Assembly: GCA_964496815.1 (NCBI GenBank)
Contig: CAZCAO010000001.1
Coordinates: 17,803 to 81,802, forward strand
From: an uncultured Candidatus Saccharibacteria bacterium
Lineage (GTDB): Bacteria; Patescibacteriota; Saccharimonadia; CAILAD01; JADZBC01
Reading direction: 5' to 3'
DNA length: 64,000 bases
Under the pieces are notes generated by a model. The model was not told the DNA's origin and made no database searches. It saw nothing but the letters and a program-made list of their open reading frames with translations. The position numbers and the translations under genes were made by a program. Each line of letters opens with the position of its first letter. Within the stretch, counting starts at the first letter, position 1. This document shows positions 42,009 to 64,000 of the stretch, piece after piece.

Positions 42009-42023
42009 TTAGGAGAATACCTA

Positions 42024-42202
42024 TGGATGACAAGAAAAAGAAAGACCTCGAAGAGCAAAAGCGCGGTGGCCTGTTCGTACCCGCTGGTGTCTTGCTGGGC
42101 ACCGGCCTGGGCTTTGCTTATGGTAATATCCCGGCGGGAGCACTGATTGGCTTGGGTGTAGGCTTTACTATCTTTGCCCTCATTAGCGTTTTCAAAAAAT
42201 AG
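42024..42202 (+). CDS. Small membrane protein (59 aa)
   Basis: Not in ORF track (<60 aa); AGGAG 7 nt upstream; Gly-zipper TM 'GVLLGTGLGFAYGNIPAGALIGLGVGF'; ends at terminator hairpin. Confidence 0.45.
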
Positions 42203-42216
42203 TGTCTTGGTATAAA

Positions 42217-42263
42217 CGAAGAAGACCCCCGAACGAATCGGGGGTCTTCTTCGTTCAGGGGTC
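42217..42263. terminator. Bidirectional intrinsic terminator, repeat-family copy 1
   Basis: CGAAGAAGACCCCCGA-acgaa-TCGGGGGTCTTCTTCG then TTCAGGGGTC. Confidence 0.7.
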
Positions 42264-42289: not shown

Positions 42290-42727
42290 CTACAGTTCCA
42301 GTTCTAGGCCGAACGCGGCCAGCTGGGCCTGTATGAACTCCACGCTACCTGCATCAAGAGAGGTAGTGTTGAGCAGGAAGGTGGCGCGATACTTCATCAG
42401 CTCGCCAACGGTGTTGATACCGGATTGGTTGCGCAAGCAAGCGGCCGTTCGAGTCCTCAGCAGCTGCGGAAACTCGCGTCCCTCATGCTTCAAATCCAGC
42501 AGGTCTTCGATGCTCATCTCGAGAATCTCGCGCATTTTACCGACGAGCTCGGTTGTGACGCGTATTTCCTCGACCTTGATGGTGGCCATCACGTCGAGAC
42601 CGAAGTAGGTGTCTTCTAGTCTCCTGATGGTCTCGAGGGCTTCCAGTATGGCACTGGGGCTCCCTGTGAGGACGAGTTGCACGTGTGCTTTGTGCGGTAC
42701 GACTTCGGTTCCTTCGATGTCGGGCAT
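42290..42727 (-). CDS. Stand-alone RNA polymerase alpha-subunit C-terminal-domain-like protein
   Basis: C-terminal 'LRTRTAACLRNQSGINTVGELMKYRATFLLNTTSLDAGSVEFIQAQLAAFGL' aligns with alphaCTD '[51 protein letters not shown]'; own promoter TTGACT..TATATT. Confidence 0.55.
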   Translation of the reverse strand: MPDIEGTEVVPHKAHVQLVLTGSPSAILEALETIRRLEDTYFGLDVMATIKVEEIRVTTELVGKMREILEMSIEDLLDLKHEGREFPQLLRTRTAACLRNQSGINTVGELMKYRATFLLNTTSLDAGSVEFIQAQLAAFGLELEL

Positions 42728-42830
42728 TGCTAGGGCCTTTTGTTCTCTGCGGGGCTACCGCAGCACATCCACGGTGGATGATTAGCAGATAATATAACAA
42801 AATTAGTAAAAAGTCAATATTCTTATTAAG

Positions 42831-42873
42831 AAAGGACCCCCGAACGAATCGGGGGTCCTTTCGTTCGGGGGTC
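42831..42873 (-). terminator. Intrinsic terminator, repeat-family copy 2
   Basis: AAAGGACCCCCGA-acgaa-TCGGGGGTCCTTT then CGTTCGGGGGTC. Confidence 0.7.
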
Positions 42874-42894
42874 GGATTGTTGGTGGCCGCTTGC

Positions 42895-43272
42895 TCAGCG
42901 GCCGAGGATGACCGTACAGGACGGATTGTCCTGGATCAGCCAGTCGCCGTCGTACTGCACCAGCTTGCCATCGCAGACCTTGCTGGTCTTGGAGCCGTCT
43001 GTCACGGTGTAGCGCACGGCCCTCTTCCAGACCGAGAGCTCGACCACGTGGATCTTGTCGTAGTGCGACTCGACCTCCGTCGTGACACGGGCATCTTCCT
43101 TGGCCCGGCTCTCATCCACGAGGTACATGCCATTGGCGAAGACCACGAAGATGACGGCCAGTACCCCGAAGGCGATGGCTGGCTTCCAGTGTTTCTTGGA
43201 GATCAGCAGGACACCGGTGGCGACTGCGAGCACTCCCGCCATCATCAGTGCGACGATTACTTCTGCGCTCAT
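42895..43272 (-). CDS. Hypothetical two-TM membrane protein with C-terminal soluble domain
   Basis: 125 aa; AAGGAGG RBS; own promoter TTGTAT-18-TAATAT; GC-rich codon usage. Confidence 0.5.
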   Translation of the reverse strand: MSAEVIVALMMAGVLAVATGVLLISKKHWKPAIAFGVLAVIFVVFANGMYLVDESRAKEDARVTTEVESHYDKIHVVELSVWKRAVRYTVTDGSKTSKVCDGKLVQYDGDWLIQDNPSCTVILGR

Positions 43273-43367
43273 GGCGCCTCCTTGTTCGGGGCCTCAGATT
43301 TAAGGCTGAAGGGTATATTAGCATATTATGCAATAAAAGTAAATACATACAAGGTTTTTGTGTAATA

Positions 43368-43413
43368 ACGAAAAGACCCCCGAACGAATCGGGGGACTTT
43401 TCGTTCAGGGGTC
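43368..43413 (-). terminator. Intrinsic terminator, repeat-family copy 3
   Basis: GAAAAGACCCCCGA-acgaa-TCGGGGGACTTTTC then GTTCAGGGGTC. Confidence 0.7.
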
Positions 43414-43426
43414 GGGCTGTGCCGGC

Positions 43427-43846
43427 TCAGCCGGAGGTGATGACCAGCCTGATGTCGGCGAAGGCATTGGTCAGCGCCTGCTCGAACTCGAGGTTCTCGC
43501 CGATTCCGTGGCCGAAGTGCTCTCGAACGTCGACGGCTCGGATCACCTCGGTCTCCTTGAGCACGCTCAGGGCGTGGTCGATGATCTGTGCCTTGAGCTT
43601 CTCCTGCGGATCGCTCCGCTTGGCGTCGATCAGGACCACACGGTTGTGCAGCTGGCTGAGCTTCTCGTGCTTCTCGTGGAGTCGGCCCTCGACGTTGATC
43701 ACTGCATGTTCTGCAAGGATCTGGAAGCGCCCAGAGGTCACGATGGTCTGGATCTGGCCATCGTCACCCGTGAAGCGCAGGCTTCCGTCGGGCATGGTGG
43801 CCAAGAGGCCTACCTGCAGGGCAGGCGTGGTTGCAGTTGCAGCCAT
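43427..43846 (-). CDS. Hypothetical soluble protein (139 aa)
   Basis: AAGGAG RBS 5 nt before ATG; own promoter TTGACT-16-TATAAT; GC-rich. Confidence 0.5.
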   Translation of the reverse strand: MAATATTPALQVGLLATMPDGSLRFTGDDGQIQTIVTSGRFQILAEHAVINVEGRLHEKHEKLSQLHNRVVLIDAKRSDPQEKLKAQIIDHALSVLKETEVIRAVDVREHFGHGIGENLEFEQALTNAFADIRLVITSG

Positions 43847-43970
43847 GTCAGTTCTCCTTGGTCGGTGGATGACTAAATAATTATATACTAAATCGAAAAA
43901 TAGTCAATGTATTGAGTGTTTTATATCAAGCCTACTTTCCGCTATACTGTTGTAAAGAAAAGGAGCCAGT

Positions 43971-45284
43971 ATGGCACGGGTAACACCACGTATCCTCAGC
44001 GGTTTTGTTGAGCTTCTGCCCGAGGATCAGATCCAATTTAATAAGATGTTCGATACAATTCGTAGTGTGTACGAAAGCTATGGCTATGCACCGATTGAGA
44101 CACCGGCAATCGAGTTGGGAGAGGTTTTGCTCGCTAAGGCAGGCGGTGAGACCGAGAAGCAAATCTACAAAATCGCTCGGGACAAAGACGACAAAGAGAT
44201 GGCATTACACTTTGACCTAACTGTGCCCCTGGCGCGCTATGTAGCTCAGCACGAAGGTGAGTTGGTTTTGCCGTTTAGGCGCTATCAAATGCAAAAAGTC
44301 TGGCGTGGCGAACGCAGTCAGGCAGGACGATACAAGGAGTTCTACCAATGCGACATCGACGTCGTTGGCAGTAGCAATGTGCTCTATGACGCTGAAATGC
44401 CTGCTGTTATTTCGAGCGTATTCCGCCAGCTTAATATCGGTAGCTTCACGATTCGAATCAATAATCGAAAGATCTTACAGGGTTACTTGGAAAGCATTGG
44501 TGCACATCACATTTCGGCAGAAGTACTGCGTGTAATTGATAAGCTAGAAAAGATTGGCGAAGCTGCGGTGGTCTCTGAGCTCGTTAAGCTCGGCGTTGAA
44601 GAGCAAGCAACCCAAAAGCTACTGACATTCTTACGTACGGCAGGAACTGTGGACGAGGTGCTTGAGCAGCTTAGGCAAGTAGACACACAAAACACCCGCT
44701 ATCTAGCTGGGTTAGAGGAACTGAGTGGTGTGATTGACGGTATGCGTCGCCTAGGAGTGCCAGCCGAAGACTACGTGATCGATTTAAAGATTGCTAGGGG
44801 GCTAGATTATTACACCGGTACTGTTTACGAAACAAACCTGGATGACTTCCCAGGGGTAGGCAGTGTGTGTTCTGGTGGCCGTTATGACGATTTAGCGAGC
44901 TATTATACCAAGAGCAAACTGCCTGGAGTTGGAGTATCTATTGGCTTAACTCGGCTGTTTATGCAGCTTAAAGAAATTGGCCTGGTGAGTGCTGGAGCTA
45001 AGACCACCAGTCAGGCGGTGATCTTGCCTCTTAACCCCGCCGCAACTGCTCGCGCACTCGAAGTAGCTAGTGAGCTTCGCAATGCTGGTATCACAGTCGA
45101 AGCATACATGGAGCAGTCGCAGCCAAGCAAGATGATGCGCTACGTGGACCGCCTTGGCGCGCCCTATGCTATCGTGATCGGCGAGGATGAGTTGGCGAGT
45201 GGGGAAGTAGTGCTGAAGAATATGACAACGGGCGAACAGCCGGTGGTGAGCATACAGGAAGTGATCAAGCGCCTAAAGGGCTGA
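43971..45284 (+). CDS. hisS: Histidyl-tRNA synthetase
   Basis: Class II motifs, 'FDLTVPLARY', C-terminal anticodon-binding domain; AAGGAG RBS. Confidence 0.9.
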   Translation: MARVTPRILSGFVELLPEDQIQFNKMFDTIRSVYESYGYAPIETPAIELGEVLLAKAGGETEKQIYKIARDKDDKEMALHFDLTVPLARYVAQHEGELVLPFRRYQMQKVWRGERSQAGRYKEFYQCDIDVVGSSNVLYDAEMPAVISSVFRQLNIGSFTIRINNRKILQGYLESIGAHHISAEVLRVIDKLEKIGEAAVVSELVKLGVEEQATQKLLTFLRTAGTVDEVLEQLRQVDTQNTRYLAGLEELSGVIDGMRRLGVPAEDYVIDLKIARGLDYYTGTVYETNLDDFPGVGSVCSGGRYDDLASYYTKSKLPGVGVSIGLTRLFMQLKEIGLVSAGAKTTSQAVILPLNPAATARALEVASELRNAGITVEAYMEQSQPSKMMRYVDRLGAPYAIVIGEDELASGEVVLKNMTTGEQPVVSIQEVIKRLKG

Positions 45285-62880: not shown

Positions 62881-64000
62881 ATGTCAGCATCACGTCAAGT
62901 GGTTTTCCTCTTCAACGAGGGGGATGAAGCCACCAGGACCCCTGCGTTTCGTGGGGGTAAGGGTGCAGGTTTGGCGGATATGGTGGCTCTCGGGCTGCCC
63001 GTTCCACCAGGCTTCACCATTGCTACCTCGGTTGCACGTGCATTCGCCGAAACCGGTCAGCTGCCCAAGCGGCTTGAAGGCCAGATTCGGCGGTCGATGC
63101 GCGTGATCGAGAAGTTGACCGGTCAGAAGTTTGGCGACACCGCGAGCCCCTTGCTGGTTTCGGTGCGCTCCGGCGCTCCCGTTTCCATGCCCGGCATGAT
63201 GGATACCGTCCTGAATGTCGGCTTGCGAAGGGAGATGCTTGGTTCACTCGAAAGTGCCAGCGGTCGAGAGTTCGCTGATGACACTTACGAGCGGTTCCTG
63301 CGTCAGTTCGGTTCTGCCGTTCTGGACCTTCCAGTCCAGGATGATCAGTTGCTCATCAAGGAGTCCGAAGGTCTTGTACCCGAAGATCCCTATGAGCAGC
63401 TGATGATGGCGATCCGAGCAGTCCTGCTTTCCTGGAATAGCGAGCGTGCTCGCACGTATCGCGACAACCAGGGGATCCCGCATTGGTGGGGAACTGCGGT
63501 AACCATTCAGGCAATGGCCTTTGGTAACCGAGATGATCAGTCGGCTACTGGTGTGGTGTTTAGCCATGACGTCAACACCGGCGCAGAGGTTCTCACCGGA
63601 GAATTCCTTGTTCGCGCCCAGGGTGAAGACATCGTGAGCGGCACCACGACGCCACAGTCGATCAATCGCATGCAGGCATGGAATCCGCAGCTCTACCAGG
63701 AGCTGCTGAACAGTGTCAGGCTGCTCTCTGATCATCTTGACAGCATGGTTGATGTCGAGTTCACCGTGGATAACGGCAAGCTCTTCATCCTCCAGGTTCG
63801 TCGTGCTACCCGTACGCCCCACGCCGCGGCTGCGTTCGCGGTTCGCCGAGTGTGGAGCCAGCGGTGGACGCACGTCGAGGCTGTCACGAGCCTCAGTGAA
63901 GCCGAACTCGAACAGCTCGAGGACGGTCAGGCCATGATGGAAGGAGATTCTACGCAACTGATTGCTGCCGGTATGCCCGCCTCGAACGGATGTGCTGTTG
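62881..64000 (+). CDS. ppdK: Pyruvate, phosphate dikinase (N-terminal part; runs off window end)
   Basis: Open frame from ATG at 62881 (AGGAGG 6 nt upstream) to window end; 'GGKGAGLADMVALGLPVPPGF', 'FGDTASPLLVSVRSGAPVSMPGMMDTVLNVGL' match PPDK N-terminal nucleotide-binding domain; absent from ORF track because no stop in window. Confidence 0.85.
   Translation, partial: MSASRQVVFLFNEGDEATRTPAFRGGKGAGLADMVALGLPVPPGFTIATSVARAFAETGQLPKRLEGQIRRSMRVIEKLTGQKFGDTASPLLVSVRSGAPVSMPGMMDTVLNVGLRREMLGSLESASGREFADDTYERFLRQFGSAVLDLPVQDDQLLIKESEGLVPEDPYEQLMMAIRAVLLSWNSERARTYRDNQGIPHWWGTAVTIQAMAFGNRDDQSATGVVFSHDVNTGAEVLTGEFLVRAQGEDIVSGTTTPQSINRMQAWNPQLYQELLNSVRLLSDHLDSMVDVEFTVDNGKLFILQVRRATRTPHAAAAFAVRRVWSQRWTHVEAVTSLSEAELEQLEDGQAMMEGDSTQLIAAGMPASNGCAV

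Follow-up and report, generated by a model that had tools for sequence, protein, structure and literature searches.

A predicted accessory protein homologous to the RNA polymerase alpha C-terminal domain in a variable gene slot of one Saccharibacteria clade

Results

A free-standing alphaCTD-like protein

We analysed a 64,000-nucleotide stretch of DNA (the window) from an uncultured Candidatus Saccharibacteria bacterium (GenBank assembly GCA_964496815.1, contig CAZCAO010000001.1, positions 17,803 to 81,802 of the forward strand) and focused on ORF145, a minus-strand open reading frame (ORF). The analysis indicated that ORF145 is probably a functional, accessory and clade-specific paralogue of the C-terminal domain (CTD) of the RNA polymerase (RNAP) alpha subunit (alphaCTD), transcribed separately from predicted signals. 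Its product appears to consist of two modules, a novel N-terminal alpha/beta module of ~55 amino acids (aa) and a domain of alphaCTD fold, joined by a poorly constrained tether. We tentatively propose, with a probability of about 0.4, that ORF145 acts in trans as an alphaCTD mimic that competes for protein ligands of the polymerase's own alphaCTD, to which a second form of the family, type B, may add binding of A/T-rich DNA. An earlier reading made from the letters alone (the sequence-only reading) had placed the gene at 42290-42727, and the ORF listing, the sequence and a coding-type GC pattern agree with it exactly. The parts of the gene are as follows.

42290 to 42727, minus strand: ORF145, free-standing alphaCTD-like protein of the form called type A; ATG to TAG, 145 aa plus stop, 438 nucleotides (ORF listing, sequence)
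42293 to 42538, minus strand: alphaCTD-like double helix-hairpin-helix domain, (HhH)2, residues ~64-145 (hhalign, Foldseek, model)
42317 to 42454, minus strand: Pfam-matched alphaCTD core, residues 92-137 (PF03118)
42554 to 42727, minus strand: N-terminal module (~58 aa: predicted strand, helix 24-40, strand) with the start of the poorly conserved tether; conserved in 13 members

The C-terminal part is a diverged alphaCTD homologue by profile and model comparison

The Pfam family PF03118 (RNA_pol_A_CTD) matched residues 92-137 of ORF145 with 25.9 bits against a gathering cut-off of 23.8. A profile of the 13-member family aligned with the RpoA profile at an hhalign probability of 99.6% (E 7.6e-25), over its last 56 columns only, and retrieved hundreds of true RpoA CTDs at ~1e-12 from a 5.8-billion-protein database. 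The best matches of ORF145 in phmmer, though weak, were PDB RpoA sequences of several phyla. The AlphaFold model of the protein reached a mean predicted local distance difference test score (pLDDT) of 73, with 85-88 in the C-terminal domain. When this model was compared with the PDB by Foldseek, the top 36 of 36 matches were alphaCTD structures, with target-normalised TM-scores of 0.84-0.87 and a root-mean-square deviation of 2.0-2.2 A over ~78 columns, values that describe a predicted model and not a solved structure. The fold match begins near residue 64-70, at an IEDLL motif that aligns with E. coli P256-L262 and is followed by a family-specific insertion of 11-13 residues. The identity of the ORF145 CTD to type B and RpoA CTDs is only 33-39%. 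These results indicate that, as far as sequence profiles and a predicted fold can tell, the C-terminal ~80 residues of ORF145 are a genuine, diverged alphaCTD homologue. The sequence-only reading had seen an alphaCTD in the last ~60 residues and had suggested profile and Foldseek comparison with PF03118 as well as an AlphaFold model. The homology held in Pfam, hhalign and Foldseek, and the modelled domain superimposes on solved alphaCTDs; the length did not, since the domain extends over ~80 residues.

ORF145 does not represent an rpoA gene. TIGR02027 scored 26 bits against a cut-off of 227.8 and covered the CTD only, and Pfam detected neither of the alpha N-terminal domain (NTD) families PF01000 and PF01193 in ORF145. 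A tblastn search of the whole 64-kb window with RpoA queries found only the CTD of ORF145 (42299-42460) and no NTD remnant. The gene does not lie in the rpsM-rpsK-rpsD-rpoA-rplQ arrangement, and the window contains no ribosomal-protein/rpoA operon; its genes include recJ, ybeY, adk, map, ftsA, ftsZ, nrdR and pyk. ORF145 itself is flanked by genes for a 59-aa membrane protein, a rhodanese and MacB/FtsX on one side and by ORF125, ORF139 and hisS on the other. The sequence-only reading had named a fragment of a disrupted rpoA as the finding that would overturn it. This candidate was rejected, because the N-terminal module, with its start codon, is common to 13 relatives, the syntenic slot is conserved and the window holds no NTD remnant.

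The N-terminal module is conserved in 13/13 family members, with T21, G22 and I34 invariant or nearly so. Profile-profile comparison by hhalign gave no match to the RpoA NTD, and no Pfam, NCBIfam, PHROG or PADLOC family matched the module. A derivation from the last strand and helix of the RpoA NTD, suggested by one tblastn alignment, was discarded, as the profile-profile comparison did not support it. The earlier view that the first 80 residues are unrelated to the RpoA NTD thus stands as to the lack of a detectable relation, with the unrelated part shortened to ~60 residues.

A small family with two main forms

A single-sequence homology search with ORF145 returned only itself. Exhaustive HMMER searching of 1.84 billion representatives returned eight proteins at E < 1e-3, three of which are relatives of 135-147 aa; the remaining matches are long multi-repeat proteins that match through the HhH motif only. 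Side by side with these, we observed that P0003, P0004 and P0006 (2126-2967 aa) and P0008 (738 aa) carry 3-12 repeated stretches matching the alphaCTD helix-hairpin-helix region, and that the N-terminus of P0008 has three clear tandem alphaCTD-like repeats. Profile searching extended the family to 13 clusters of 131-147 aa, all 13 with intact ORFs and a conserved MPD... start. Every member with readable context lies between the divergently transcribed hisS and the rhodanese/MacB-FtsX block. By these searches the alphaCTD-like family (~13 members) is confined to one slot in one Saccharibacteria clade. Loci anchored on HisRS assigned the organism to Candidatus Saccharibacteria (Saccharimonadia), and the assemblies GCA_964413715.1, GCA_964436255.1 and GCA_964573585.1 also contain family members.

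Type A comprises ORF145 (P0001), P0002 and P0009, type B comprises P0005 and P0010-P0017, and P0007 is a third, A-like form. Types A and B are 30-35% identical. Type B is the sole occupant of the slot in five genomes and occurs together with type A in a sixth. It gives much stronger RpoA matches (NCBIfam E 1e-15; best PDB match Mycobacterium RpoA, 47-49 bits). One type B paralogue, P0010 (L005:6297-6728), has a GC content at third codon positions (GC3) of 0.97 in a genome of GC3 ~0.47 and bears a short tandem duplication in its tether (SIEFIGDKSRIEFIGQ).

Mutational and structural work has defined the '265 determinant' for binding of UP-element DNA as R265, N268, C269, G296, K298 and S299 (E. 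coli numbering). In the alignment to the E. coli alphaCTD, the equivalent of R265 is invariant throughout the family. Residues equivalent to R265, N268, G296, K298 and S299 are all retained in type B, whereas ORF145 keeps R93 (R265), C97 (C269) and S128 (S299) and has A96 for N268, D125 for G296 and G127 for K298. The incomplete determinant weakens the claim of UP-DNA binding for ORF145 and leaves its homology untouched. Binding to UP elements or recruitment of RNAP to specific sites, as the sequence-only reading had envisaged, is unlikely for ORF145 because N268, G296 and K298, three of the main DNA-contact residues of alphaCTD, are lost.

Selection on ORF145 and on type B

The GC contents of the three codon positions of ORF145 (GC1 0.62, GC2 0.36, GC3 0.71) showed the pattern of coding sequence. 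Overlapping plus-strand ORFs found no support and are a usual by-product of GC-rich DNA. Four to five independent metagenome contigs encode a protein identical to ORF145. Compared with its orthologue P0002 in the related locus L005, ORF145 showed a ratio of nonsynonymous to synonymous substitution rates (dN/dS) of 0.37, at 62% nucleotide and 52% aa identity; among P0001, P0002 and P0009, dN/dS was 0.30-0.50 in all three regions of the protein and the ORFs were intact. These values suggest purifying selection on ORF145.

The same values bear on the possibility that the type A copy is a decaying duplicate with little or no function left, which we regard as quite unlikely. Decay would suit the lost contacts, the low identity of the CTD to type B and RpoA (33-39%), a Shine-Dalgarno sequence weaker than those of neighbouring genes and a nearest orthologue at only 52%. 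On the other side, three diverged orthologues are intact with constrained dN/dS in every region, the CTD is modelled with confidence, promoter, leader and terminator are maintained, and ORF145 is the only member of its family kept in the window's genome.

In type B, dN/dS was 0.28 for the N-terminal module, 0.47 for the CTD and 0.78 for the middle tether, suggesting purifying selection on the two modules and a nearly unconstrained tether. Synonymous differences per codon of identical amino acid were 0.09-0.32 between type B orthologues, against a saturation level of 0.38-0.40 under their own codon bias, while HisRS was essentially saturated (0.46-0.60 vs 0.63). It follows that the type B genes are either of more recent date than the species themselves, having been exchanged horizontally, or under constraint at their synonymous positions.

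Cassette anatomy and the leader hairpin

The island of GC-rich DNA around ORF145 spans 42.2-43.9 kb and holds three minus-strand genes, ORF145, ORF125 and ORF139, as separate cassettes. Each follows one plan: an AT-rich sigma-70-like promoter, a short leader, a GC3-rich coding sequence (CDS; GC3 0.70-0.84 against ~0.5 for the genome) and a ~48-nucleotide 3' element. The GC-rich island, the gene's own promoter and the perfect palindrome in its leader, all described in the sequence-only reading, were found in place at the positions below.

42789 to 42817, minus strand: predicted sigma-70-like promoter of ORF145, TTGACT-17-TATTAT (consensus scan, 10/12 matches)
42747 to 42780, minus strand: leader of ORF145 with two hairpins (sequence, RNA fold)
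42766 to 42780, minus strand: leader hairpin HP1, CATCCAC-C-GTGGATG, starting ~2-3 nucleotides after the likely transcription start
42747 to 42763, minus strand: leader hairpin HP2, CTGCGG-TAGCC-CCGCAG (sequence, RNA fold)
42213 to 42263, minus strand: 3' element of ORF145, GACCCCTG followed by a 20-bp perfect hairpin (fold -39.2 kcal/mol, z = -8.7)
42895 to 43272, minus strand: ORF125 cassette, two predicted transmembrane helices and a small C-terminal domain, GC3 0.84; 3' element at 42837-42872
43427 to 43846, minus strand: ORF139 cassette, orphan soluble protein, GC3 0.82; promoter at 43880-43907, 3' element at 43377-43412

In the orthologous cassette of L005, promoter and leader match those of ORF145 at ~93-95% identity, whereas the CDS is only 62% identical. 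HP1 is found in 7/7 leaders of types A and B, with 97% of cells paired and two pairs showing compensatory double changes; HP2 is found in 4/7. This covariation gives modest support to a leader hairpin structure, the sequences being few and related. HP1 fits a 5' stem-loop of the RNA better than a fixed operator, because its sequence varies while the pairing is kept and the loop ranges from 1 to 5 nucleotides.

These data are relevant to another explanation, in which ORF145 would be a small DNA-binding regulator or nucleoid-associated protein: the N-terminal module would dimerise and two alphaCTDs would read A/T-rich minor grooves or the palindrome of its own leader, with autoregulation as a result. 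The architecture does resemble a tethered pair of DNA readers, a palindromic element directly follows the -10 box in every family gene, and type B retains the contact residues listed above. ORF145 itself, however, lacks N268, G296 and K298, carries an Asp in the second hairpin and is strongly acidic, and the variable sequence of its leader palindrome suits an RNA hairpin. We consider this explanation rather unlikely.

The 3' element of ORF145 is predicted to act as a bidirectional terminator common to ORF145 and the convergent gene of the 59-aa membrane protein. In general form the element is GACCCCYG followed by an 18-20-bp perfect hairpin. Three copies occur in the window, all in the island, and across 12 related loci (168 kb) there are 17 copies, one after each cassette and none outside the slot; in the stem of one copy, a C-G pair is replaced by T-A, a compensatory change. 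A scan of metagenome and viral contigs with the 19-nucleotide hairpin core gave more than 120 single generic matches and none with the extended element, the pattern being too unspecific. The ORF139 family comprises only five clusters, all in the hisS/rhodanese slot, and is as small and slot-bound as the alphaCTD-like family. The convergent membrane protein (59 aa, glycine-rich; window 42023-42202, plus strand) is found in only some genomes of the clade and is 93% identical in aa to its L005 copy, with a dN/dS of 0.02.

Origin of the type B CTD and the GC3 anomaly

We compared the type B CTD with RpoA CTDs, in a set that did not include the clade's own RpoA. It was 71-73% identical to the RpoA CTD of a 70%-GC organism (L196) with a canonical rpsM-rpsK-rpsD-rpoA-rplQ operon, 56-61% to those of Mycobacterium and Streptomyces, 50-52% to that of B. 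subtilis, 41-43% to that of E. coli and 39% to a low-GC RpoA resembling those of the candidate phyla radiation (CPR), met by chance in L090. The closest named RpoA matches in the family profile search were from Acidimicrobiia. GC3 is 0.82-0.97 in type B and 0.67-0.97 across the alphaCTD-like genes, in genomes with GC3 ~0.5. Taken at the level of sequence, identities and GC3 point to an actinobacterial-type source of the type B CTD.

The 76-78% nucleotide identity of type B to the high-GC rpoA was set aside as proof of horizontal gene transfer, since ~75% is expected from 70% aa identity and GC3 saturation. Unrelated cassettes without an actinobacterial homologue are equally GC3-rich, and the enrichment ends at start and stop codons. 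Expression-linked codon bias as a cause found no support in the one gene compared, rpmE in the window, which has a GC3 of 0.48. Neither simple horizontal transfer nor biased gene conversion nor expression-linked codon bias thus accounts for the GC3 anomaly. A second atypical segment of this ~49% GC genome lies at window 62881-64000 (plus strand, GC 0.586), in a gene that runs off the end of the window; by eye only, and unconfirmed by family search, its product resembles the N-terminus of a pyruvate-phosphate-dikinase or phosphoenolpyruvate synthase.

The resemblance to actinobacterial RpoA raises the possibility of a host-directed effector, in which the epibiont would deliver a mimic of the alphaCTD of its actinobacterial host, for example through the Saccharimonadia type IV secretion system. 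Epibiotic growth requires this system, and the absence of a relaxase from it points to a role other than conjugation (PMC12102498). The gap between 71-73% identity to the 70%-GC RpoA and only 39% to the CPR-like one would suit an effector, as would the Acidimicrobiia matches, the high GC3, the fast evolution and the variable presence of the gene. ORF145, however, has neither a signal peptide nor a known translocation signal. Moreover, the 76-78% nucleotide identity adds nothing beyond aa identity and GC3 bias, and the neighbouring cassettes without actinobacterial homologues are just as rich in GC3. We judge a host-directed effector unlikely. A broader scenario seems similarly improbable: an epibiont would have captured the CTD end of an actinobacterial-type rpoA, possibly that of a host, and fused it to a new N-terminal module, creating a mimic for conflict between organisms (injected to hijack alphaCTD-dependent transcription of the host, or a decoy for phage factors) with foreign-like codon usage in a slot of swappable cassettes. 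ORF145 would then be a diversified second allele of changed ligand specificity.

Searches for mobile elements, phages and defence systems

The sequence-only reading had suggested that a free alphaCTD could serve as a decoy or anti-activator, a host-takeover function of the kind carried by mobile elements. No integrase, transposase, relaxase or phage gene was found near the slot in any genome examined, where the neighbours are housekeeping genes, and no flanking direct repeats typical of insertion were found at the island. PHROGs gave only insignificant matches for ORF145, INPHARED none by tblastn, and IMG/VR none for ORF145 or the family profile. Type B gave three weak partial HhH matches in INPHARED (tblastn, E ~2e-3, 27-48% of the query), in unannotated phage records. 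Neighbours and phage collections thus offered nothing for mobile cargo, a plasmid collection not having been searched. Composition and presence were as expected of such cargo, with GC3 of 0.70-0.84 against ~0.5 and slot content variable among close relatives. PADLOC-DB contained no match for ORF145, ORF125, ORF139, P0005 or the 159-aa protein of L011.

An integron-type cassette array was also considered and rejected: the cassettes have their own -35/-10 promoters, the 3' element is a perfect terminator hairpin, exchange break-points do not fall at it, and the gene calls for the 20 kb around the slot include no integrase, the remainder of the window not having been scanned exhaustively.

Host-takeover cargo of a mobile genetic element is, in our view, very unlikely. 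Its atypical composition, the recent inter-species transfer of part of the island and the existence of phage-encoded free alphaCTD proteins are in its favour. The absence of mobile genes and direct repeats, the use of the same slot in at least 12 genomes, the lack of a usable match in PHROGs, PADLOC, INPHARED or IMG/VR, and recombination break-points that lie in a promoter and a CDS 5' end, not at specific sites, place ORF145 instead in a chromosomal, clade-specific slot.

Among phages, BFVD holds proteins of 111-139 aa named 'RNA polymerase, alpha subunit, C-terminal'. In addition, P0018 (214 aa; L188:6001-6645, on the phage-like contig ERZ28594020) carries two tandem alphaCTD-like domains of proteobacterial type; its neighbours are small ORFs, an AAA_24 gene, PolA+UDG and a helicase. 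Free alphaCTDs encoded by phages, a precedent for the mimic that we propose, seem to be a class that has gone unstudied. A literature search for free alphaCTD-like proteins found no relevant report and no characterised example. What was known comprises the alphaCTD domain and automatically annotated free alphaCTD proteins; the N-terminal module, the restricted distribution, the apparently foreign-type CTD and the cassette slot are new.

Slot turnover and recombination

The content of the slot varies even where two genomes have HisRS proteins that are 90-92% identical.

Window: ORF139, ORF125, type A
L005:6140-8708: type B, ORF139, ORF125, type A
L008:7853-8501 (L008/L012): type B
L013:5412-6000: homologue of the ORF125 membrane protein, sole occupant
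L014:2702-3533 (L014 and L190): ORF139 homologue only
L193:4865-6080: ORF139 homologue and an unrelated 136-aa gene
L011: 159-aa gene and P0007

The HisRS proteins of L013, L014 and L190 are 80-90% identical to that of the window, yet the alphaCTD-like gene is absent there; these comparisons indicate that close relatives can do without the ORF145-type gene. The slot houses at least six unrelated small genes (alphaCTD-like, ORF139 family, TM125 family, and genes of 136, 159 and 152 aa). Five of these types share one design, with an AT-rich promoter, a GC3-rich CDS and the identical ~48-nucleotide terminator element.

Core genes of the window and L005 are saturated at synonymous sites (dS 1.5-2.2), and their HisRS proteins are 79% identical in aa. 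In contrast, a block from the ORF139 leader through ORF125 to ~35 nucleotides inside the type A CDS (window 42690-43880 vs L005:6860-8040) is 96-98% identical in nucleotides, with dS 0.03-0.07; within it, ORF125 is 96.8% and ORF139 97.6% identical to the L005 copies. Past the block, identity drops abruptly to 62% of nucleotides and 52% of aa in the type A CDS, a divergence about that of the genome background. The break-points lie ~35 nucleotides inside the 5' end of ORF145 and in the promoter of ORF139. A near-identical block in a saturated background indicates a recent inter-species exchange of part of the array by homologous recombination.

Beside the slot, hisS (window 43971-45284) encodes a HisRS 43-55% identical to those of Peptoniphilaceae, Anaerococcus, Finegoldia and Parvimonas, and only 30-32% identical to other Saccharibacteria/Patescibacteria HisRS from the same scan. 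The pattern is suggestive of hisS having been replaced horizontally in this clade long ago.

This variability is also relevant to the idea of an anti-phage or conflict decoy, in which free alphaCTD, present in abundance, would titrate away phage factors that need to bind or modify the cell's own alphaCTD. A hyper-variable slot, with small orphan cassettes that differ among close relatives and are exchanged between species, would suit such a role, as would the fast-evolving tether and the strong predicted expression signals. Against this stand the missing PADLOC match, the lack of known adjacent defence genes and the lack of an effector module; moreover, we know of no precedent for an alphaCTD acting as an anti-phage decoy. 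We give this idea little credence.

Discussion

We tentatively favour the view that ORF145 is not part of RNAP and would act in trans as an alphaCTD mimic. A small N-terminal module, a flexible tether and an alphaCTD would together copy the logic of RpoA; given this RpoA-like architecture, the free domain could occupy ligands that dock on the polymerase's alphaCTD and thereby weaken or reroute the transcription that depends on it. For type A, the ligands would most likely be protein partners, such as activators, sigma region 4 or factors like Spx or NusA; for type B, A/T-rich, UP-like DNA may be among them as well. The dispensability and fast evolution of the gene suit a role in modulation or conflict better than a core function.

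Several points weigh against this proposal. The protein as a whole is acidic (isoelectric point 4.8, net charge -9). The N-terminal module is modelled with low confidence (pLDDT 60-84, and 63 when modelled alone), and it may dimerise, dock on RNAP or bind something else. A split-subunit arrangement is countered only indirectly, by the absence of the gene from close relatives. The raised dN/dS and lost contacts of type A would also be compatible with a copy drifting to loss of function.

Compared with known systems, the closest relative is the alphaCTD of RpoA (PF03118; E. coli 1LB2/3K4G, B. subtilis 1Z3E, M. tuberculosis, S. coelicolor 7VPD), which has the same fold and is homologous to ORF145. 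Both have the R265 equivalent, the helix-hairpin-helix spacing, a C-terminal GL.L motif and a flexible tether in front of the domain. Unlike RpoA, ORF145 has no alpha NTD, carries the 11-13-residue insertion, lacks N268/G296/K298 and is encoded in a monocistronic cassette outside the ribosomal-protein/rpoA operon. Type B has the N-terminal module, length, slot, HP1 and terminator element in common with ORF145 but differs from it in its full contact residues, its GC3 of 0.82-0.97 and a CTD near the actinobacterial type of RpoA, at 30-35% identity. The phage proteins A0A7T0M174, A0A6J5MNY7, A0A6J5QDR9 and A0A6J5NZM6 of BFVD, together with P0018, are likewise free-standing alphaCTD folds (111-214 aa) with no alpha NTD; they differ from ORF145 in being phage-encoded, in their other N-terminal parts and in showing no sequence relation outside the domain, and the CTDs of P0018 are of proteobacterial type. 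To our knowledge, none of them has a tested function.

Francisella tularensis, whose alpha1/alpha2 structure (PDB 6WMP) was among the PDB matches, likewise has a second, diverged alphaCTD in its genome, by virtue of two rpoA paralogues. These, however, are full-length alpha subunits that assemble into RNAP, whereas ORF145 lacks the alpha NTD. With B. subtilis Spx (anti-alpha; PDB 1Z3E, 3GFK) we propose a functional analogy only, in that both would interfere with contacts between activators and alphaCTD: Spx binds alphaCTD while ORF145 would imitate it, and the two are not homologous.

The alphaCTD is the main docking platform by which activators and UP elements recruit bacterial RNA polymerase, and a copy of it that is free and expressed on its own would offer a simple way, so far uncharacterised, to tune or sabotage it. 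Saccharibacteria are ultra-small epibiotic bacteria with very few regulators, and their known hosts are from Actinomycetota. A one-clade family in such regulator-poor epibionts is of added interest, and so is the resemblance of type B to the alphaCTD of high-GC Actinomycetota, the phylum of the known hosts. The locus is itself unusual, in that unrelated small GC3-rich genes have promoters, leaders and a single terminator element in common and are exchanged between species; even if the mimic idea is wrong, the locus would still illustrate, as a clean natural case, cassette turnover in which no recombinase can be recognised. If the idea is true, ORF145 and its relatives would provide a testable entry point to self-regulation in CPR bacteria or to their manipulation of partners.

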